From assembly GCA_045597145.1 (NCBI GenBank), contig JAZODU010000069.1:8599-72598 (forward strand): DNA of 64,000 nt. The letters run 5' to 3'. Below, in pieces: positions 3,733-12,711 of the stretch. The notes beneath the pieces were generated by a model that was not told the DNA's origin, searched no databases, and was given only the letters and a program-made list of their open reading frames with translations. The translations under genes were made by a program, and so were the position numbers. Each line of letters opens with the position of its first letter. Position 1 is the stretch's first letter. The stretch is from Eubacteriales bacterium. Lineage in GTDB: Bacteria > Bacillota > Clostridia > Oscillospirales > CAG-272.

Positions 3733-3766
3733 AATTCTCCTTTGTTTTTTTGATACGTTCATCATT

Positions 3767-3816
3767 ACTGCTGTAAAATGAAATTTTGAGTTTCGCTCAA
3801 AAGTAACATTTGTCCT
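3767..3816. repeat. island repeat unit, copy A
   Basis: ACTGCTGTAAAATGAAATTTTGAGTTTCGCTCAAAAGTAACATTTGTCCT, with internal hairpin TTTTGAG-TTTCG-CTCAAAA. Confidence 0.8.
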
Positions 3817-4166
3817 TAACTGTTCCCCTTTGCGGTGGTGATGGAGGCGATGAGTCTACGTCTGATCGAACCGCATTTGTTTCGCAAATCTTTATACGTG
3901 ACCTCGTCCATTTTCCCTTTTCTGAATATCAATTCGAGCCAATATTCCGTTTCAGAACACTCTTTCAAAGAGATTTCCAATTTATTTATAAAATCCGCTT
4001 TGCTTTGGGCGTATTTTGCTTCGTGAATGTTTGCTCCGATTGACGACGAGGAGCGAACAATCTGGTTGACATAAACCGAACAGCCCTTTATTTCATCACA
4101 AAGATCAGAAATTTGAATTGCAAATTCGATTGCATCTTCACGGAGTTGGTTCTCGTTATCGTTCAT
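3816..4166 (-). CDS. four-helix bundle protein (23S rRNA intervening-sequence protein family)
   Basis: 116 aa from MNDNENQL (ATG 4166, RBS AAAGGAG). Family pattern IVRSSSSIGANIHEAKYAQSKADFINKLEISLKECSETEYWLEL. The longer track ORF reaching 4418 is rejected. Confidence 0.75.
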   Translation of the reverse strand: MNDNENQLREDAIEFAIQISDLCDEIKGCSVYVNQIVRSSSSIGANIHEAKYAQSKADFINKLEISLKECSETEYWLELIFRKGKMDEVTYKDLRNKCGSIRRRLIASITTAKGNS

Positions 4167-4189
4167 TTGATAAAACTCCTTTCTTTTTG

Positions 4190-4415
4190 TCGATATGTTC
4201 GCCATTGGCGAACTCGATATATGGTCGCTTTGCGACCATTCGATATATTTCTCGCTTCGCTCGAAATTCGATATGTTGCCTGCGGCAACGAGGGTCGATT
4301 GCACCGCACTAAAGTAACGTCTCTCGCTTTGCCCACAGGGCAAAGCATATCGAGCGCGAAGTGTCATATCGAACGCAAATCGTATATCGAACGACGCGTC
4401 AGCGGCGCATATCGA
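4190..4415. repeat. dyad array of eight YATATCGAR motifs with interspersed short hairpins
   Basis: TCGATAT occurs at 4190, 4214, 4240 and 4268. ATATCGA occurs at 4347, 4366, 4384 and 4409. Hairpins lie at 4198-4212, 4222-4238, 4276-4288 and 4327-4345. Confidence 0.7.
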
Positions 4416-4433
4416 CATCGAATCCGCGGGTCA

Positions 4434-4555
4434 AAGACACGACGGATTCGACGTGGGGTCAAGAGTACAAAAGGTATATTTTTGTGTCAAAAACGGGGGT
4501 TGTAAGTCCAAAAAGTCTCAAAAGCATAGGGGGAAAGTAACATTTGTCCCTAATT
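4434..4555. repeat. degenerate rlmCD 3'-end copy plus a ~100-bp arm (junction repeat R1)
   Basis: Minus strand 4455->4435 reads HVESVVS. The arm 4456-4555 aligns with 4771-4872. Confidence 0.65.
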
Positions 4556-4630
4556 TTTAAGTGATGCTTGTGAACATAAACTGCTGTAAAACGAACTTTT
4601 GAGTTTTGATCGAAAGTCACTTTTGTCCCT
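4535..4630. repeat. island repeat unit, copy B (permuted full unit)
   Basis: AAAGTAACATTTGTCCCTAATTTTTAAGTGATGCTTGTGAACATA is followed by AACTGCTGTAAAACGAACTTTTGAGTTTTGATCGAAAGTCACTTTTGTCCCT. Confidence 0.8.
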
Positions 4631-4734: not shown

Positions 4735-4770
4735 TTATTTTCTCGTCAGACAAACGACACTTTCGACGTG
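4735..4770 (-). pseudogene. orphan duplicate of the last 11 codons and stop of rlmCD
   Basis: Minus strand reads HVESVVCLTRK*, against HVESVVCLSRK* at the real gene end. 4747-4770 is identical to 11356-11379 (24/24 nt). Confidence 0.85.
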
Positions 4771-4872
4771 GGTCAAGAGAGCAAAAGGTCTCAAAATCGG
4801 TCAAAAACGGGGATTGTAAAACCAAAAAGTCCTCAAACCATAGGTGGAAAGTAACATTTGTCCCTGATTTTT
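4771..4872. repeat. ~100-bp arm homologous to 4456-4555 (junction repeat R2), ending in a partial repeat unit
   Basis: Shared blocks are GGTCAAGAG, CAAAAGGT, TCAAAAACGGGG, CCAAAAAGT and GAAAGTAACATTTGTCCCT. Confidence 0.7.
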
Positions 4873-4932: not shown

Positions 4933-4962
4933 ATGAGCATAAAAAATGCAGGGGGAAATGTT

Positions 4963-6279
4963 ATGCCTTATGCAATAGATTTATTTTGCGGAGCGGGTGG
5001 ATGTTCCGAAGGATTAATCCAAGCAGGTTTTCACATATTATTCAGCTCCGATATAAGCGATATGGTGGAAAAAACCTATCGCCATAGACACGAACAACTC
5101 GGTCTCATTCAAGGAAAAAATACTTGGTTTCAACGTGAAGATATTCGCAATCTAAAAGGCAAAGATATAGAAAGATATATTTCGCAGTTGGAGATATTCC
5201 AAGGCGAACCGATTCCTGAAATTGATTTGTTGATCGGTGGTCCCAGTTGTCAGGGCTTTTCTCGTGCAGGCCGTCGGGATAAATCCGATCCACGAAATAT
5301 GCTTTTCGGGGAATATGTAAGAGTGGTGAGCGAAATAAAGCCCAAATACATTGTTCTTGAAAATGTCGAAGGATTCGTAGATATGCGATTTGTCGGGTAC
5401 AAAGGTATCACGGGAATCCAGTATCCCGATGGTAGTGTCACACCTAAAATTTTAAGAAGTGAATTAAGTGAAATTGGCTATGAAACACTTGAACCTAAAA
5501 TACTGAATGCTGCGGACTATGGTGTACCCCAAAGAAGAAATCGCGTCATTTTTATTGGCTTTAGAAAAGGATTGACACCGCCTAAATATCCAGAACCTAT
5601 TATTAATTCTGCCGATTATTTAACATTGACAGAAGCCATAGGTGATTTGATTGTCAGCGACGAAATACGAGCGAGAGTAAACAAGCAAGCCTCTCAGTAT
5701 CAACTTGATAGCCAAAGAGGTCGAACTCCGAGTGCTAACGGTATGCCTATAAAGTCAACTACTCCTAAAAATACAGAGTTATCCAAACAAACCCCTATCG
5801 TCATTGAAAGATTTTCTTTGTTTGAAGAGGGTGAAACAGGAACTATGTTGAAGCGAAGAATTTTGGAAAAAGGGATTGATTTAACAGGCAAAAATGCTTT
5901 AATCACACTCTGTGCTAAAAGTTTTGCGATGTCTAACGAAGCTGTTATTACGCTCTTCAGAGAGGCTCGTGCTACGATCACTCAAATAGAAGTTTTGCTC
6001 ACAAAAAAGAACATTCGCCAAAGATGGGCTTCAAATCAGCCTTCTGCAACGATAGTCACAATAGCCGACGATTATATCAGCCCGTGGGAAGATAGGACTT
6101 TCAGTGTGCGCGAAATGGCTCGTTGTCAATCTTTTGATGATTCGTTTGAATTTTTGGGAAAACGAACAACAGGCGGTTTGCAACGCCGAGTAGAAGTTCC
6201 GCAATACACTCAAGTTGGAAATGCGGTGCCACCGTTGCTTGCAAAAGCAGTTGCATTGGAAATTAAAAAAGTTTTATAA
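4963..6279 (+). CDS. DNA (cytosine-5)-methyltransferase (R-M module 1)
   Basis: Motif I DLFCGAGG. Motif IV GGPSCQGFS. Motif VI ENVEG. Motif VIII QRRNRVIFIG. Motif X TQVGNAVPPLLA. RBS GGGGGA lies before ATG 4963. Confidence 0.9.
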   Translation: MPYAIDLFCGAGGCSEGLIQAGFHILFSSDISDMVEKTYRHRHEQLGLIQGKNTWFQREDIRNLKGKDIERYISQLEIFQGEPIPEIDLLIGGPSCQGFSRAGRRDKSDPRNMLFGEYVRVVSEIKPKYIVLENVEGFVDMRFVGYKGITGIQYPDGSVTPKILRSELSEIGYETLEPKILNAADYGVPQRRNRVIFIGFRKGLTPPKYPEPIINSADYLTLTEAIGDLIVSDEIRARVNKQASQYQLDSQRGRTPSANGMPIKSTTPKNTELSKQTPIVIERFSLFEEGETGTMLKRRILEKGIDLTGKNALITLCAKSFAMSNEAVITLFREARATITQIEVLLTKKNIRQRWASNQPSATIVTIADDYISPWEDRTFSVREMARCQSFDDSFEFLGKRTTGGLQRRVEVPQYTQVGNAVPPLLAKAVALEIKKVL

Positions 6280-6313: not shown

Positions 6314-7522
6314 CTATGATTTCGTCAAGTCATATTCAATAGGAGTTCCTAAAAGCAACGGCAAATCTTGCGGTTTCATTTTAAAAAGCATACCGTGGTC
6401 TCGCCATTTACCTTCGGGGGTGTAGTGTGCAGCAATGTCGACTGTAATCTTATCCGTTTCCAACAGAGGTGCTATTAAAGAAGTGTTCGGATGTTTGGTG
6501 TGTAGTACTTTATCATATCGAAAATATTCAATGCTATTATGAATTTCCGAGACTGCTTTTACCCAAAATGTTTCGTGGTGTTTAACAAGCAAAGTTTGTG
6601 CAAGACCACTGATATACCAAGCGGAAACATACCGTCTTATTTCTTCTTGTTGATACATTATTTTTAGTTTGTCATCGTTCGCCGTAACCTCTAAAACAAG
6701 GTCATATGCGTTTATATGAGTCACCTTTAATGTATCGTATAACTGTAGTCGTGCGACCGTTGTTCCTTTTGGGATTTGTATTTTTCCGTATGCATCCACG
6801 ATTTGTCTATAGGTCATTCCATCATCGGGAACTTTGGTAAACAATGTAGACTTGGTTGAATGCCTAATTACACCGTCACGCGACAAGCGAGAGGTCTTTA
6901 ACTCTATGCCCTTGTAATCAGGCGTTTTTGCATTATTCCTTGAAATACCTAATGCGTGTTCAAGCGTATCTCCTACACCGGGATCTCCGCGAGTAATCGA
7001 AGGAATAAAACCGCGATTATGTATATTCTGTATCTTGTTGAGCAATTCGCGAGCAACCACATTGTCTTGATGGACCGACTCCAGTAGAATATCATATACG
7101 AATGCTTTTTTGAATAAAGATTCTACAATTTTGGCATCAGAAAGGTTTATTACATATATTTTTTTGTTGGCTATAATGAGTGCTAAAAGGTTACAAGGAG
7201 AACAATAGTGGGTAAGTTTACTAAACCAAATTCTCGGGTCGCCCTTTTTTGTTAAAGGACGATAAAGGGAGGCAACGGTTTCTTGTACTTTATCGGGATA
7301 TACAAAATAACTTTGAACTAAAGTCTTGGCGTTAGGACCTTGATTTTGTGCCTCGTAATCGTGTATATCTTTATTCTTTAAAAGTTCGCGCACAGGAGCT
7401 GTTGCATCCATTATAGATTTACCATAACCAGTAGGCGTAGGTACGAGAAAAGCAACTGAAACACCCGTATCTGCAAAAATGGGAAGGAATTGTTCTATAT
7501 CGGTATCGGACATTAGTAACAT
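6314..7522 (-). CDS. type II restriction endonuclease, MvaI/BcnI (MutH/Sau3AI-like) catalytic domain with a ~165-aa N-terminal extension
   Basis: GDPGVGDTLEHALGISRNNAKTPDYKGIELKT matches the (G)xGxxxExxLG...PDxxxIE-x-K core. The C-terminal VDIAAHY...WRDHGMLFKM resembles the MvaI VDIRIGAY...HDHGTAFRI block, as I recall it. The gene is convergent with the MTase. Confidence 0.65.
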   Translation of the reverse strand: MLLMSDTDIEQFLPIFADTGVSVAFLVPTPTGYGKSIMDATAPVRELLKNKDIHDYEAQNQGPNAKTLVQSYFVYPDKVQETVASLYRPLTKKGDPRIWFSKLTHYCSPCNLLALIIANKKIYVINLSDAKIVESLFKKAFVYDILLESVHQDNVVARELLNKIQNIHNRGFIPSITRGDPGVGDTLEHALGISRNNAKTPDYKGIELKTSRLSRDGVIRHSTKSTLFTKVPDDGMTYRQIVDAYGKIQIPKGTTVARLQLYDTLKVTHINAYDLVLEVTANDDKLKIMYQQEEIRRYVSAWYISGLAQTLLVKHHETFWVKAVSEIHNSIEYFRYDKVLHTKHPNTSLIAPLLETDKITVDIAAHYTPEGKWRDHGMLFKMKPQDLPLLLGTPIEYDLTKS

Positions 7523-7561
7523 AGTTTAAAACTCCTTTGTTTTTCTCGATATGTTACCCCT

Positions 7562-7640
7562 AACTGCTGCAAAATGTACTTTCGAGTTTCGCTCAAAAGC
7601 AACATTTTTCCCTAATTTTTAAGTGGTGCTTGTGAACATA
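7562..7640. repeat. island repeat unit, copy C (full)
   Basis: AACTGCTGCAAAATGTACTTTCGAGTTTCGCTCAAAAGCAACATTTTTCCCTAATTTTTAAGTGGTGCTTGTGAACATA. Confidence 0.8.
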
Positions 7641-7647
7641 TCAGAGA

Positions 7648-8916
7648 TTACATTCCGTTATAGTTCTCCCATCTCCACCGCAAGAACTCTTTATTTGTGA
7701 AATCGGGAATCACAATACGAGGAGGAATCAATGCACCGTAATCCATTCTCGCCCTCGAAGATAGTTCAACAATTCCTGTTTCTGAAATACGTAAATGTCC
7801 TGTGTCGAATAAAGTATGTATGTCGGTTCTCATTGCAAATCCGTTCGCAACAGTATCTTCACCATTATACTTGAAGGGTTTTATGTGTGCAGCTTCTAAA
7901 ACCTCGGGCATCGTAACATTTGTAATTACACAACGTTGACAAGCCTTAAGTACTTCTCTTCTAAAGTTTGCTTGATTCGGTCTTGCCGTTCTCATTGTTT
8001 GAACACGTTTTCTTTCAACTTCAGATGTAACTTCTGTTGCTCGAATTTGAGCTAACGCAGATATAAGCGATTCGTCTTTGGGCTTTTGAGCAATGATTGC
8101 AGAAATTTCATCTAGTATAACGGCACTAATAGCATATTTTTCAGCCATCCTTGTGTTGCCGCCTATAAGATTGATATATCCGTAATTTGAAAGGAACAAC
8201 AAGTATTCTCGTGCTATACGCATGTCATTGGCTTCGGGGCAACAATTGGGCCATCCAATTAGAGATATTTCACCTGCCCTATACCAAAGTATGAAATTAA
8301 CATAGTCTTCTATTTCCGCATGGCATCCCGACAATGGAATAATCACTTTTATCAGTTCTTCGGTGGTGATATAACCCTGCCCTAATTCTTGAAGCTTCAT
8401 TTGAATTTCAAGGATTAGCCTTAGCGGATATAAGACCAAATTGTGTTCAAGCCAACGAGCACATTCCTGCTGACTTTGAATTTGGGCGTTAGGCAATTTA
8501 AAGGTTTGAACTGTTATTGCTGCAAACTCGGTTTGCGAAATATCATGGTCGGCGATCCTTCTACCAAATTCGGTTAATTGGATTTGCCCCGAGCGTCCGC
8601 CCGGAGGAATTAATCCCAAGGCTCTCCAATATTGTCCTGAATTTCTAATTAAATTCCGTTCGCCGGCCCTTCTTTCTAAATCCACGCCGACGGAATCTTT
8701 TATGTCATTAGATAAATCTATCAGTTCTTTTGCAAATTCATCTGAACTGTATTTCACGCCCAAAGGCTCTAACTTTCGCATTCTGAACAAAACGCCAAGC
8801 AATACAACGGGGTCATTCAATCCCTCTGTACATTGTAGGCATGCCCATTTCCATTTAAATTCGGGAAAGGGCTTTACTGGTACATAATTTTTAGGTAACA
8901 TATTATTTTTCCTCAA
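7648..8916 (-). CDS. HNH nuclease, putative restriction endonuclease of R-M module 2
   Basis: C-terminal HNH block: FRREVLKACQRCVITNV...LEAAHIKPF...NGFAMRTDIHTLFDTGHL. It is the last gene of the C-M-M-R operon and overlaps the MTase stop by 14 nt. I cannot assign the N-terminal ~300 aa. Confidence 0.7.
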   Translation of the reverse strand: MRKNNMLPKNYVPVKPFPEFKWKWACLQCTEGLNDPVVLLGVLFRMRKLEPLGVKYSSDEFAKELIDLSNDIKDSVGVDLERRAGERNLIRNSGQYWRALGLIPPGGRSGQIQLTEFGRRIADHDISQTEFAAITVQTFKLPNAQIQSQQECARWLEHNLVLYPLRLILEIQMKLQELGQGYITTEELIKVIIPLSGCHAEIEDYVNFILWYRAGEISLIGWPNCCPEANDMRIAREYLLFLSNYGYINLIGGNTRMAEKYAISAVILDEISAIIAQKPKDESLISALAQIRATEVTSEVERKRVQTMRTARPNQANFRREVLKACQRCVITNVTMPEVLEAAHIKPFKYNGEDTVANGFAMRTDIHTLFDTGHLRISETGIVELSSRARMDYGALIPPRIVIPDFTNKEFLRWRWENYNGM

Positions 8917-9829
8917 AATCGTTAAACATACGAGCTACAGCGTATCCCAATAGCGGGGGAACAGCATTACCAATTTGTCTATATACGGACGAACGATTGC
9001 CCGTAAACTCAAATCGCAAAGGAAAACTTTGCACTGTAGCAAGCTCCCTACAAGACATTCTTCGTGCTGCGTTGGGATGCGGCAAAATAACAACTCCACC
9101 TTTGCTGTCTCCTCTTGCAGTAACAGTAGGTGCGGGTTTTTCAGGATCAAGTGGACGGTGACCCAAATAACCGTTAAACTCTAATTTGTATTTTGAATAC
9201 TCATGATTCGGTAAATCGTTAGGCTGGTCGGGGTCAGGAATATTGGACAATGCCGATAAAACGCTTACCCACTTTGGTAAACCGTTACTACCGTTTTTGT
9301 CGTGTGTAGGCGACGGAAATACATATTCAAAATCCAAATCCGAACGAACACCCACAATAATCACTCTCTGTCGAGTCTGCGGAACCCCAAAATCAGCGGC
9401 GTTTAACACTTTCGCACAGACGTTATAGCCCAAATCGCGAAAATCAGAGAGAATCATCTCAAACACTTTTCCGCCTAACAAATTCGTTAATCCCTTGACA
9501 TTTTCAGCCAAGAAAAATTTTGGCTTTTTAGCATCAATGACACGAATCAGCTGTTTATACAATGCGTTTCTTGTGTCGTCCGCATGACGTTTGGTGTTTG
9601 CAACCGAAAAACCCTGACAAGGAAATCCCCCAATTACAATATCACAATTCGGAATATCTGCCTCATTGATTTTAGATATATCTTCGCAAACAATATGGTC
9701 TCCAATATTCTTTCTATATGTGTTTACCGCATCTTCGTATAAATCATTTGCCCAAATTATAGTGTGACCGGCCATTATAAAACCCAAGTCTAGACCGCCA
9801 GCACCGCTAAACAAAGATACTGCTTTCAT
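8903..9829 (-). CDS. DNA (cytosine-5)-methyltransferase (module 2, second copy)
   Basis: Motifs SLFSGAGGLDLG, GGFPCQGFS, ENVKG, QTRQRVIIVG, RRMSCRELATVQSFP and YRQIGNAVPP. Confidence 0.9.
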   Translation of the reverse strand: MKAVSLFSGAGGLDLGFIMAGHTIIWANDLYEDAVNTYRKNIGDHIVCEDISKINEADIPNCDIVIGGFPCQGFSVANTKRHADDTRNALYKQLIRVIDAKKPKFFLAENVKGLTNLLGGKVFEMILSDFRDLGYNVCAKVLNAADFGVPQTRQRVIIVGVRSDLDFEYVFPSPTHDKNGSNGLPKWVSVLSALSNIPDPDQPNDLPNHEYSKYKLEFNGYLGHRPLDPEKPAPTVTARGDSKGGVVILPHPNAARRMSCRELATVQSFPLRFEFTGNRSSVYRQIGNAVPPLLGYAVARMFNDFEEK

Positions 9830-10761
9830 CTGATTACTTCCTTTTCCAATCTTATCAATTCTTCACCTAGTAATTTTGCAAATTTGACGGGAACAGCATT
9901 GCCAATTTGCCTATAACAAGCCCCCATCGCTCCAACAAATTCAAAATTTTCCGGAAAGGTTTGAACGCTCGCACTTTCTCGAATTGTTAATCTGCGTGTT
10001 CCATTATAATGTGGTATAGCACAAACTCCGCCTTTCCCATTTCCCCGCGCCAAAATAGTAGGTGATGGCTTGTCAGGCTCTGTCTGTCTATGTCCCGTGA
10101 AATTGCGATACTCAACTTTGTAAGAAGAACAAATATGATTCAATACAGTATGCGTGCTTGCAGGGTCAGGAAAATGATCGATAGCTTCTTTTATCGAAAC
10201 CCATGCAAGAGGACTTCCACTTTTTGAGTGAGTAGGTGTGGGGAAACGAAACAACAATTCTTTCCCTATGTCTGTTCTTTGTCCGATGATAATAACTCTC
10301 TGTCTTGTTTGAGGCACACCATAATCTGCCATATTAACTAAAGTTACAGATGTGATATACCCCGCTTGTTCGAAATCATTGATGATTTGTCGAATTGCCG
10401 TCCCATTACCCAAGCTCAAAATCCCTTTTACATTCTCTGCAATGAAAAACTTAGGTTGCTTAATAAGTATTGTGTTGTAAAAAAATTTATATAGTTGATT
10501 TCTGTCATCGTCAACAGTTCTAAGAAGATTAGCCTGTGAGAATCCCTGACAAGGAAATCCACCAACTACTACATCGGCATCGGGAAGCGTATGAATATCA
10601 ATGTTTTTTATGTCATCACACACTATGTGTTCACCAATATTTTTTTTGTATGTTGCTACGGCATCTTTATCAAAGTCATTAGCCCAAATTACACTATTTC
10701 CTGCTTGAATCAACCCTAAATCCAAACCACCCGCACCACTAAATAAAGATATTATCTTCAT
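9826..10761 (-). CDS. DNA (cytosine-5)-methyltransferase (module 2, first copy)
   Basis: Motifs SLFSGAGGLDLG, GGFPCQGFS, ENVKG, QTRQRVIIIG, RRLTIRESASVQTFP and YRQIGNAVPV. It has a 4-nt overlap with both neighbours. Confidence 0.9.
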   Translation of the reverse strand: MKIISLFSGAGGLDLGLIQAGNSVIWANDFDKDAVATYKKNIGEHIVCDDIKNIDIHTLPDADVVVGGFPCQGFSQANLLRTVDDDRNQLYKFFYNTILIKQPKFFIAENVKGILSLGNGTAIRQIINDFEQAGYITSVTLVNMADYGVPQTRQRVIIIGQRTDIGKELLFRFPTPTHSKSGSPLAWVSIKEAIDHFPDPASTHTVLNHICSSYKVEYRNFTGHRQTEPDKPSPTILARGNGKGGVCAIPHYNGTRRLTIRESASVQTFPENFEFVGAMGACYRQIGNAVPVKFAKLLGEELIRLEKEVIR

Positions 10762-10976
10762 TGCGCTTCTCCTGTTTCTTTAGTTACATCCATAATATCA
10801 TCAAAACTGCATTCTAACGCATTGCAGATGCGGAGCATAATATCCATAGACACAGTTTCATTCTTGCCGAGCTTGGCAAGAGTGGTTGTTGACATATCCG
10901 TTGCAAGTCGCAGATCGGTTTTTGTCATACCCTTATCTATGAGCAATTTCCATAGTTTATTGTAGCTTACTGCCAT
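10758..10976 (-). CDS. XRE-family HTH protein, putative R-M controller (C) protein
   Basis: 72 aa with HTH MTKTDLRLATDMSTTTLAKLGKNE. It is the first gene of the operon, and its stop overlaps the MTase start. Confidence 0.7.
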   Translation of the reverse strand: MAVSYNKLWKLLIDKGMTKTDLRLATDMSTTTLAKLGKNETVSMDIMLRICNALECSFDDIMDVTKETGEAQ

Positions 10977-11008
10977 ATGTAAAACCTCGTGTTTTCAAAG
11001 TTATCTCT

Positions 11009-11037
11009 ATTATAACATATCTGTCCGCGAATTTCAA
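11009..11037 (-). promoter_or_regulatory. sigma-A-type promoter of the C-M-M-R operon
   Basis: Minus strand reads TTGAAA, 17-nt spacer, TGtTATAAT. A GAGG RBS lies before ATG 10976. An AACATATC motif (11014-11021) overlaps the -10 box. Confidence 0.6.
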
Positions 11038-11196
11038 CAAAATATCAGAGAAAACAAATATTTTATGCGTAGATTTTGATACTCAATCGGTGTGTGGAAA
11101 CATATCAAAAGCCATTTTTATCGTTGCATTACTATTTTCAAGGAAAAACGTGCAATTTCAGGTCAAAATAGCCGTTTTTGTTCGATATGTTATACT

Positions 11197-11248
11197 AAAC
11201 TGCTGTATTTTGATTTTTGACCACGGGGTGAAAATCACTTTTGTCCCT
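11197..11248. repeat. island repeat unit, copy D (diverged)
   Basis: AAACTGCTGTATTTTGATTTTTGACCACGGGGTGAAAATCACTTTTGTCCCT, preceded by TTCGATATGTTA at 11181-11192. Confidence 0.7.
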
Positions 11249-11270
11249 ACTTGAAAATTTGACAAAACAC

Positions 11271-11312
11271 AAAAAAGAACAGCCTTTTGACCGAAAAACA
11301 CGCTCAAAAGGC
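11271..11312 (-). terminator. intrinsic terminator of rlmCD
   Basis: Hairpin AGCCTTTTGA...TCAAAAGGCT (11281-11312), followed on the minus strand by a T-run (plus-strand AAAAAAGAAC at 11271-11280). Confidence 0.6.
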
Positions 11313-11343
11313 TGAAAAACGCCCGTTTTAGGGTCAAAATCGC

Positions 11344-12711
11344 TTATTTTCGGGACAGACAAACGACACTTTCGACGTGCCCTGTCCTCGGAAACATATC
11401 CACGGGCGTCACAACCCCAATCTCATACCCCAATTTTCTAAACAGCGCACAATCGCGGGCGAGCGTATCGGGACCGCAGGAAACGTAGACGATGCGCTCA
11501 AAATTCCGCGCCGCAAGGTACTCGATCAGCTCGGGCGTGCTTCCCTTGCGCGGCGGGTCCATGATGACCGTAGCACCCGAAACGTCACCGTGTGCGCTCT
11601 CTGCGCGCTCCAACAGATGCCGTGCATCGGACGCGTCACCGCAATAAAAATAAGCATTCTCAACGCCGTTACGTGCGGCGTTTTCTCTTGCGCGCGCGAC
11701 CGCCACCTCAACGATCTCGATGCCGATCACCCGATCGGCGTTCTTCGCCATGGAAAGCCCGATCGTGCCGATGCCGCAATAAAGATCCAGCACGGTTTCG
11801 CCACCCGTCAGCGCGGCTTTCTCGCGCGCCGTGGCGTAAAGCAGCTCGCACGCGTCGTGATTGACCTGATAAAACGCGCCCGCAGAAATGCAAAAGCGCA
11901 GACCGCACAGGATATCCTCGATCCATTCTCGCCCCGCCAGAAGTCGGTAGTCCTTCCCAAGCACCACGTTGGTGTTTTGCGTGTTGACGTTGAGCATCAC
12001 GCTCTTAACGCCCGAAAATTTTCCGCACAAGCCATCGGCAAGCCGCTCTTCGTTCGGCAAGCTCTTGCCGTTGACCACGAGGCAGACCATGGTCTCACCC
12101 GTCCCCTCGCCCATGCGCAGATAGATGTGGCGCAAAAGCCCCTTACGCGTTTCCTCATCGTACGCTTTGATGCCGTTTTGGTCGCAAAACGCGCATATGT
12201 ACGACAAAATCTCCCCGAACACGGGGGGCTGGAGGCGGCAATCCGTGCACGGCACGACGCGGTGCGTGCCCGTAGCGTAAAAGCCCGCCACCATGCCGCT
12301 CTTGCCGTTTGCCACGGGGTACTGCGCCTTGTTGCGGTAGCCCGTGAGCCGCCCCGTGGAAAGCACGGGATCGACGTGCACGTCAAAAAGCCCCGCCTTG
12401 CGGAAGGCGTTTTCCACGTAGTTGCGCTTAAGCTCCAGCTCGTGCTCGTATTTGACGTTTTTATACACGCAGCCGCCGCATCCGCGCGCCGCGCAAACGT
12501 ACCCGTCCTCGCGCAGGCGCGAGGGGGTACGCATTTTTTCGATCCGTGCGACAAGGTAATTCTTCGTCACCTTGATGATGCGCGCGTCCAATAGGTCGTC
12601 GGTCACGCCGTCGCTCACGAACACGACCTGTCCCTCGGGAGTGTGCGCCACGCCGAAGCCGAGGTTGTTGATCTCCTCGATAGACAGCGTGATAACGTCA
12701 TTCTTTTGCAT
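11344..12711 (-). CDS. rlmCD: 23S rRNA (uracil-5-)-methyltransferase, RumA/RlmCD family
   Basis: 455 aa with an N-terminal TRAM-like domain, a Cys cluster (CAARGCGGCVY) and a C-terminal SAM MTase (LDLYCGIGTIG, DPPRKG). Confidence 0.85.
   Translation of the reverse strand: MQKNDVITLSIEEINNLGFGVAHTPEGQVVFVSDGVTDDLLDARIIKVTKNYLVARIEKMRTPSRLREDGYVCAARGCGGCVYKNVKYEHELELKRNYVENAFRKAGLFDVHVDPVLSTGRLTGYRNKAQYPVANGKSGMVAGFYATGTHRVVPCTDCRLQPPVFGEILSYICAFCDQNGIKAYDEETRKGLLRHIYLRMGEGTGETMVCLVVNGKSLPNEERLADGLCGKFSGVKSVMLNVNTQNTNVVLGKDYRLLAGREWIEDILCGLRFCISAGAFYQVNHDACELLYATAREKAALTGGETVLDLYCGIGTIGLSMAKNADRVIGIEIVEVAVARARENAARNGVENAYFYCGDASDARHLLERAESAHGDVSGATVIMDPPRKGSTPELIEYLAARNFERIVYVSCGPDTLARDCALFRKLGYEIGVVTPVDMFPRTGHVESVVCLSRK

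Follow-up and report, generated by a model that had tools for sequence, protein, structure and literature searches.

Region 7648–11037 of a 64,000-nt stretch of contig JAZODU010000069.1 from an Eubacteriales bacterium (hereafter, the window) contains four minus-strand open reading frames (ORFs) of 72, 311, 308, and 422 amino acids (aa), the last counted from a TTG codon. They encode a small helix-turn-helix (HTH) protein, two C5-cytosine DNA methyltransferases (MTases; denoted as M1 and M2), and an HNH nuclease (denoted as R), and they form an operon of the restriction–modification (R-M) kind (Table 1). The junctions between the HTH gene and M1 and between M1 and M2 are 4-nt ATGA overlaps, and the M1/M2 overlap is near-universal in related loci. 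A preliminary description, made from the sequence alone, had reported overlaps of 4, 4, and 14 nt. Both 4-nt overlaps hold, whereas the 14-nt overlap between M2 and R is an artefact of the start-codon call, as the TTG at 8916 is its sole source. The best approximately 120 nuclease homologs are all 416–420 aa in length, and their alignment begins at Met6 of the TTG-start ORF. In related loci, the M2 stop codon and the nuclease start are separated by 0–6 nt, and the Shine-Dalgarno sequence GAGGAA of the window sits between TTG 8916 and ATG 8901. Therefore, the nuclease comprises 417 aa from ATG 8901 and does not overlap M2, whose stop codon TAA (8905–8903) ends 1 nt before it; the two genes are still tightly coupled. 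The single TTGAAA-17-TGtTATAAT promoter described previously was located in front of the HTH gene. It is the best, and the only, 11/12 match within 7400–11350, and in related loci, promoter-like sequences are similarly placed 5′ of the HTH_26 counterpart.

Table 1. Coordinates of the R-M operon, its domains and putative control elements, the bracketing repeats, and the related McrB-type loci (window coordinates, except for the last two rows, which refer to the loci named)
Feature	Coordinates	Strand	Remarks
Sigma-70-type promoter, TTGAAA-17 nt-TATAAT, extended -10 TG	11009–11037	-	11/12 consensus positions
HTH protein (Cro/C1-type), 72 aa, putative controller	10758–10976	-	Stop overlaps M1 start by 4 nt
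M1, C5-cytosine DNA methyltransferase, 311 aa	9826–10761	-	PF00145, E = 3.7e-73
M2, C5-cytosine DNA methyltransferase, 308 aa, M1 paralog	8903–9829	-	PF00145, E = 2e-77
Nuclease residues 1–275, predicted winged-helix-type recognition domain	8077–8901	-	AlphaFold2 and Foldseek
Nuclease residues 276–321, predicted helical linker	7939–8076	-	Model helices 279–289, 291–305, 310–320
Nuclease residues 322–417 and stop codon, HNH_2 domain	7648–7938	-	PF13391, E = 4.9e-11
Candidate operator, inverted repeat AAAATAT-N12-ATATTTT with TTTCTC	11039–11064	-	Directly upstream of -35
Second candidate operator, inverted repeat GTTAT-N7-ATAAC	11000–11016	-	Overlaps -10
Island repeat unit, approximately 80 nt, downstream cassette boundary	7540–7620	+	Families D2, D4, D6
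Island repeat unit, upstream cassette boundary	11176–11252	+	
McrB-family reader loci L075/L076	4737–10710		AAA_5
McrB-family reader locus L077	233–6597		AAA_5

M1 and M2 align from end to end, including the short target-recognition region, with 53% identity over 307 aa (E = 1e-118), and all the shared sequence blocks listed in the preliminary description are present. Both proteins match PF00145/TIGR00675 over their full length and contain motifs I, IV (PCQ), VI (ENV), VIII (QxRxR), and X (GNAVP). The catalytic motifs of M1 read FPCQGFS, ENVKG, QTRQRV, and GNAVP. Judged from these motifs, M1 and M2 are both predicted to be intact C5-cytosine MTases; the nearest solved relative of either is M.HaeIII (E = 4e-48 for M2). 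A tree of 130 MTases places the M1 and M2 orthologs in two separate clades with 96% support, and the two enzymes of the operon fall in the M1 and M2 clades, respectively. Members of one clade share a median identity of 70%, against 52% for pairs across the clades. In all, 126 columns are at least 90% conserved in each clade; 108 of them are identical and 18 differ between the clades, and seven of these 18 lie at positions 219–252, in the target-recognition region. For example, this region reads YKVEYRNFTGHR..KPSPTILARGNGKGGVCAIPH in M1, in contrast to YKLxFNGYLGHR..KPAPTVTARGDxKGGVVILPH in M2. These clade signatures persist in distant metagenome loci whose nuclease is only 38–41% identical. 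Since M1 and M2 form separate, well-supported clades, their duplication is ancient and predates the spread of the family, both copies having been maintained. Accordingly, the paralogy proposed in the preliminary description stands, while a recent local tandem duplication is ruled out by the tree. Type IIA enzymes are often accompanied by two MTases, one for each strand (PMC4081073), and two maintained, sub-functionalized MTases are what an asymmetric site requires. The maintenance of M1 and M2 fits strand-specific methylation of such a site. Given that the two recognition regions are homologous, the sequences read on the two strands probably resemble each other.

The C-terminal HNH block of the nuclease, recognized at the outset, corresponds to Pfam HNH_2 (PF13391), with a score of 42.8 bits against a gathering cut-off of 21. 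A sequence search against the PDB returned matches confined to this domain, namely VcaM4I (6yex, E = 3.9e-4) and TagI. In the remaining part of the chain, RE_AlwI (PF09491) matches residues 100–216 at a sub-threshold score of 20.7 bits (cut-off 23.1), covering profile positions 3–113 of 441, and some homologs pass this cut-off in precomputed annotation. Pfam PF11564 gave no match on the window nuclease, and NCBIfam returned a weak match to a phosphorothioate-dependent restriction endonuclease. The names in source and cluster records are generic, either 'HNH endonuclease' or, for some homologs at NCBI, 'AlwI family type II restriction endonuclease'.

The nuclease was modeled with AlphaFold2. 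A first model, based on a shallow alignment of close homologs, gave a good N-terminal domain (N-domain) with a predicted local distance difference test (pLDDT) value below 50 at residues 304–360. It was replaced by a second model based on a deeper alignment with relatives down to 29% identity, which reached a pLDDT of 93.5 and a predicted template modeling score of 0.91; its N-domain (residues 1–275) has a pLDDT above 85. In a Foldseek search, residues 1 to approximately 280 matched the DNA-bound recognition domain of BpuJI (2vla, 5hlt, and 5hnf) with a template modeling (TM) score of 0.60 and a probability of 1.0. The N-domain also matched the AlwI-family nickase N.BspD6I (E = 8e-6) and, more weakly, FokI (E = 0.02). 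The identity to these structural matches is 12–14%, and the likeness is at the fold level. Trp17, Arg82, Arg86, Arg208, and Arg228 of the N-domain are invariant in the alignment of relatives. The C-terminal part resembles VcaM4I (6yex, E = 4.6e-5), TagI (root-mean-square deviation of 3.5 Å), and EcoKMcrA. The model contains a beta-beta-alpha-metal core composed of strands 335–339 and 354–358 and helix 359–367, and His339, Asn353, Asp360, His362, and Asp366 are invariant across the superfamily, down to 29% identity. On the basis of the model, the N-terminal approximately 275 aa, which had previously been left unassigned as a region of about 300 aa, are assigned as a recognition (reader) domain of the BpuJI/AlwI/FokI type. 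The C-terminal catalytic domain of the AlwI family and the PD-(D/E)XK domain of BpuJI are both replaced by HNH_2 in the window nuclease, and the database label 'AlwI family' is misleading for this nuclease family. As modeled, the nuclease consists of a recognition domain, a helical linker, and an HNH_2 domain with an intact H-N-H site. This architecture is that of Type IIS enzymes, in which a recognition domain is joined through a linker to a non-specific cleavage domain (PMC4081073).

The M1–M2–R arrangement is widely conserved. A scan of genomes, with one genome per species, yielded 74 loci, and the order is intact in 59 of them. Seven loci have no MTase match; in most of these, the gene has decayed or runs off a contig end, and one of the seven, L046, shows no MTases over 6 kb of upstream flank. 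In the other eight loci, one gene missed the extraction filter through a contig-end or partial match or a frameshift (as in loci L070 and L021). The hosts of the 59 loci belong to Bacillota (43), Bacteroidota (6), Spirochaetota (3), and Kiritimatiellota (3), with further hosts in Synergistota, Deferribacterota, one Saccharibacteria genome, and one Methanomethylophilaceae archaeon. The GC content of the cassette is mostly below that of its flanks in the related loci (median 0.435 versus 0.487). A metagenome scan, for which the query was a relative sharing 39% identity with the window nuclease, added eight loci with usable flank, all with M1–M2–R and with nucleases 37–57% (mostly 37–41%) identical. 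The HNH protein, expected from the preliminary description to be genetically linked to the MTases in other genomes, is so linked in these 59 genome loci and eight metagenome loci, and indeed in every locus with enough flank except L046 and a few decayed copies. The family amounts to 1506 clusters at 90% identity and to 132 clusters at 50% identity with E ≤ 1e-30, the latter from an exhaustive profile-free search with the nuclease, and its members abound in anaerobes of the gut and rumen. Searches of plasmid and phage collections gave HNH-domain matches only and no full-length nuclease homolog. A characterized prototype of the nuclease family was not found in the literature, and the parts of the Proxi-RIMS-seq2 survey of microbiome 5-methylcytosine (m5C) that were available (PMC11954522) do not mention the architecture.

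Several of the related loci are of interest in their own right. The nuclease is truncated or internally deleted in L070 (6001–6771), L086 (1768–2682), and L087 (1852–2766), where M1 and M2 are intact; the retention of the MTases during decay of the nuclease is the usual path of R-M decay. In L073 (6001–6239), a nuclease fragment stands alone with no MTase match. The archaeal locus, from a Candidatus Methanomethylophilaceae archaeon related to gut methanogens (L052, 3315–6415), contains a complete M1–M2–R cassette with a nuclease 61% and an M2 76% identical to those of the window. Such similarity indicates that the cassette was probably transferred between domains.

The 72-aa protein at the head of the operon is of the Cro/C1 type, with a match to Pfam HTH_26 (E = 1e-17); its score against the VanU-like family of NCBIfam is 87.5 bits, under the cut-off of 150. 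Homologs occupy the same position in nine related loci. A small HTH gene lies upstream of M1 in approximately 26 of approximately 55 related loci with enough upstream sequence, the others having none, and the families found in this slot include two HTH_26 subgroups, HTH_3, and HTH_17-like proteins. Two inverted repeats near the promoter are candidate operators. The one upstream of the -35 element has a similar counterpart in L072 (AATATTT-N12-AAATATT), and TTTCTC repeats occur at the same place in L002, L003, and L005. The one overlapping the -10 element is not conserved in related loci. Across the nine loci with this HTH type, no consistent operator motif or conserved C-box was found. Classical C proteins belong to an HTH family other than HTH_26. 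The earlier designation of this gene as the controller is borne out in so far as a small HTH gene stands at the operon head, overlapping M1 and behind the only strong promoter. Based on its position, a role as the R-M controller is plausible.

Considering these results together, we find it likely that the operon functions as a Type II R-M system of the Type IIS/IIA kind. The preliminary description had proposed an asymmetric-site or nicking system with an HNH nuclease and two strand-specific m5C MTases, and the Type IIS form of this proposal gains support from the reader fold common to BpuJI, N.BspD6I, and FokI, the HNH_2 domain, and the linkage across phyla. In the proposed mechanism, one promoter would drive four translationally coupled genes for the HTH regulator, M1, M2, and R. 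Each MTase would methylate a cytosine on its own strand of the site, M1 on one and M2 on the opposite strand, while the N-domain of R would bind the short asymmetric site in its unmethylated form. The non-specific HNH domain would then cut at or near the site. It may act as a transient dimer, because VcaM4I and TagI, the nearest HNH_2 enzymes, are dimers; alternatively, R might nick both strands in turn. Following transfer into a new host, operon expression would be delayed, or its level set, by the HTH protein, and the cassette would itself have arrived by horizontal transfer into a low-GC island beside an rlmD-like gene. The asymmetry of the site, the strand specificity of the MTases, and the choice of cutting over nicking are the parts of this scheme that we infer.

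Several points weigh against this assignment. Site asymmetry is deduced from architecture and gene content alone, the RE_AlwI score of 20.7 lies under the cut-off of 23.1, and the N-domain is just 12–14% identical to its structural matches. In addition, HNH_2 domains are chiefly familiar from Type IV enzymes, which are modification-dependent, and the HTH protein belongs to HTH_26, with no conserved C-box and with half of the related loci having no upstream HTH gene. The operon is an ordinary kind of system in a widespread uncharacterized family. Characterization of this family could provide a new Type IIS or nicking prototype and specificity for molecular biology, and two m5C motifs would become assignable to many metagenome-assembled genomes in methylome surveys.

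Three other readings of the locus were weighed. Within the same R-M operon, the nuclease might be a site-specific nicking enzyme in which the single HNH site of a monomer cuts one strand. Each chain indeed has one HNH active site, yet Eco31I and MnlI are single-site HNH Type IIS enzymes that cut both strands. The strongest full-chain fold match of the N-domain is the natural nickase N.BspD6I, but nicking by that enzyme is due to a PD-(D/E)XK-type catalytic part and the lack of a partner subunit rather than to its recognition domain. Small HNH nickases are known (PMC3592412, PMC3017599), whereas the closest HNH_2 structures, those of VcaM4I and TagI, are of dimeric double-strand cutters. Furthermore, two MTases for both strands would exceed the need against a one-strand nick, and we regard a nicking enzyme as unlikely.

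A symmetric or degenerate-symmetric site, with the MTases redundant or divided by substrate form or by cytosine and not by strand, is distinctly improbable in our estimation. The recognition regions of M1 and M2 are homologous throughout and very short, as in MTases for palindromic sites such as M.HaeIII, and a single m5C MTase, M.BbvI, covers the quasi-symmetric Type IIS site GCWGC (PMC4081073). Redundancy, however, would hardly be expected to preserve both copies and their clade-specific recognition residues in a fixed order across wide divergence. The reader fold is that of monomeric binders of asymmetric sites, and relatives of the reader are again accompanied by two m5C domains. In the remaining reading, R would be an HNH enzyme of the modification-dependent (Type IV) class, like VcaM4I, TagI, or McrA, and would merely lie beside unrelated MTases. 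In favor of this reading, the HNH domain finds its best matches, by both sequence and fold, among Type IV enzymes, and NCBIfam weakly suggests a phosphorothioate-dependent enzyme. In both the Foldseek and the PDB searches, however, the Type IV matches span the HNH domain only, and the N-domain has a sequence-recognition fold and does not resemble the modified-base readers EVE, SRA, or SBD. The nuclease is also translationally coupled and syntenic with the MTases, save in L046 and a few decayed copies, and a 5-methylcytosine-dependent nuclease would be toxic to its own host if expressed together with two m5C MTases. We therefore consider a Type IV enzyme extremely improbable and retain the Type IIS/IIA reading.

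The operon lies in an island of 38–41% GC, compared with 54–60% in the genome (54% overall), between the genes for a glycerate kinase and an rlmD-type rRNA methyltransferase. It is a horizontally acquired, intact operon. Direct repeats of approximately 80 nt bracket both R-M cassettes of the island; besides the two copies at the boundaries of the present cassette, a third is located at 3744–3824, and within the genome these repeats are confined to the island. In L001, one repeat type is also found 3′ of the nuclease gene. Copies of the final 28 nt of the rlmD-like gene (11354–11381) are present at 4430 and 4745 (4430–4558 and 4745–4872). These arrangements suggest a stepwise insertion of integrase-less cassettes at the rlmD 3′ end. 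The second R-M module of the island is convergent, with a 448-aa m5C MTase (4933–6279, plus strand) and a 402-aa nuclease of the MvaI/BcnI family (6314–7522, minus strand). The latter matches PF15515 at residues 161–390 and has an extra N-terminal region of approximately 160 aa. The first cassette of the island contains an ORF (3816–4418, minus strand) for a four-helix-bundle protein with the 23S rRNA-intervening-sequence-protein domain (PF05635). The operon is part of a small defense island of repeat-bracketed cassettes.

The 1.9-Mb genome contains at least nine m5C MTase genes, those of the operon included. Its observed-to-expected k-mer ratios are 0.07 for CTAG, 0.12 for GGCC, 0.28 for GGWCC, 0.30 for CCGG, 0.40 for CCWGG, and 0.45 for both CTCAG and GAGAC, and GCWGC is also avoided. 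Since the m5C MTase genes are so numerous and the island was recently acquired, no avoided motif can be assigned to the operon, and k-mer avoidance was discarded as a route to its recognition site.

Most of the 132 nuclease clusters have the same architecture of 400–430 aa. Several, however, contain proteins of 620–1070 aa that combine the N-domain and an AAA_5 (McrB-type) module in one fused chain, and over 320 aa the McrB-family reader shares 34% identity with the window nuclease (E = 1e-55). In Aliarcobacter butzleri and Flavobacterium, a fused double m5C MTase (735–746 aa, two PF00145 domains) is followed by the McrB-family protein and then by a 550–591-aa protein without a Pfam match; in the Flavobacterium locus (L077), an HTH_3 gene lies 5′ of the fused MTase. 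The Aliarcobacter butzleri module is part of an integrative element that also carries genes for an integrase, FtsK, and TraT. The halves of the fused MTase have longer recognition regions and are 30–36% identical to M1 and M2, and orthology with them was rejected on this low identity. Because this identity is so low, the specificity of the McrB-linked systems probably differs from that of the window operon. The predicted homologous reader occurs in two nuclease contexts, each with two m5C activities, which provides independent support for the asymmetric-site reading as the likely job of this domain. The occurrence of the reader in McrB-type systems illustrates that readers, methylases, and nucleases are interchangeable parts in the assembly of R-M systems. 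Going further, we tentatively entertain the possibility, somewhat short of probable, that the whole superfamily represents one ancient asymmetric specificity, with the reader as a portable module shared between the HNH enzymes and the GTP-driven McrBC-type motors of Aliarcobacter and Flavobacterium, each with two m5C activities. A single ancient specificity would be in keeping with the constancy of the M1/M2 recognition signatures while the nuclease diverges to approximately 30% identity. If this is true, the family would represent a natural effector swap between Type II and Type IV-like restriction machinery.

Among known systems, LlaJI offers the counterpart to the McrB-type loci. The reader of LlaJI itself has a different, B3-like fold. 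LlaJI recognizes the asymmetric sequence GACGC/GCGTC and has two m5C MTases (PMC1459862), and its layout, with two m5C activities and a dedicated DNA reader, is matched by L075–L077. The LlaJI-type effector comprises a GTP-dependent McrB-like motor and a second subunit, whereas the window operon has no AAA_5 domain according to Pfam. For the window nuclease, the likeness is to BpuJI (CCCGT; PDB 2vla), which has the same N-terminal recognition fold (TM score of 0.60 over approximately 280 residues) at 12–14% identity. BpuJI likewise combines an asymmetric site with two m5C MTases. Its C-terminal nuclease is of the PD-(D/E)XK type, like archaeal Holliday-junction resolvases, in contrast to the HNH_2 nuclease domain here. 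The AlwI family (AlwI, PleI, MlyI, Nt.BstNBI, and N.BspD6I; PF09491) has its recognition fold in common with the window nuclease through N.BspD6I. The window nuclease differs by its HNH catalytic domain and its sub-cut-off Pfam score. The fused MTase pair of AlwI consists of adenine MTases. In this respect, too, AlwI, with its fused pair (PMC4081073), differs from the operon, where the m5C enzymes are separate.

HphI, MnlI, Eco31I, and HpyAV, which are HNH-type Type IIS enzymes, likewise combine a sequence-specific reader with an HNH domain and are accompanied by two MTases. Their systems pair an m5C with an N6-methyladenine MTase and not two paralogous m5C enzymes, and no sequence relationship to the window nuclease was found outside the HNH core. 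HphI belongs to the HNH_2 group (group 6) of the His-Me finger nucleases (PMC5714182). The 2017 classification of these nucleases also lists CBL24780, annotated as 'AlwI', which combines a BpuJI-like N-domain with HNH_2 (PMC5714182). CBL24780 thereby has the same domain architecture as the window nuclease, to which it is likened by description. The domain combination has thus been seen bioinformatically before, whereas the operon and its conservation have not. With respect to the two-MTase plan, the operon resembles, by description, the Type IIS systems HgaI and FauI, whose two paralogous m5C MTases are separate proteins, one methylating each strand of an asymmetric 5-base-pair site.

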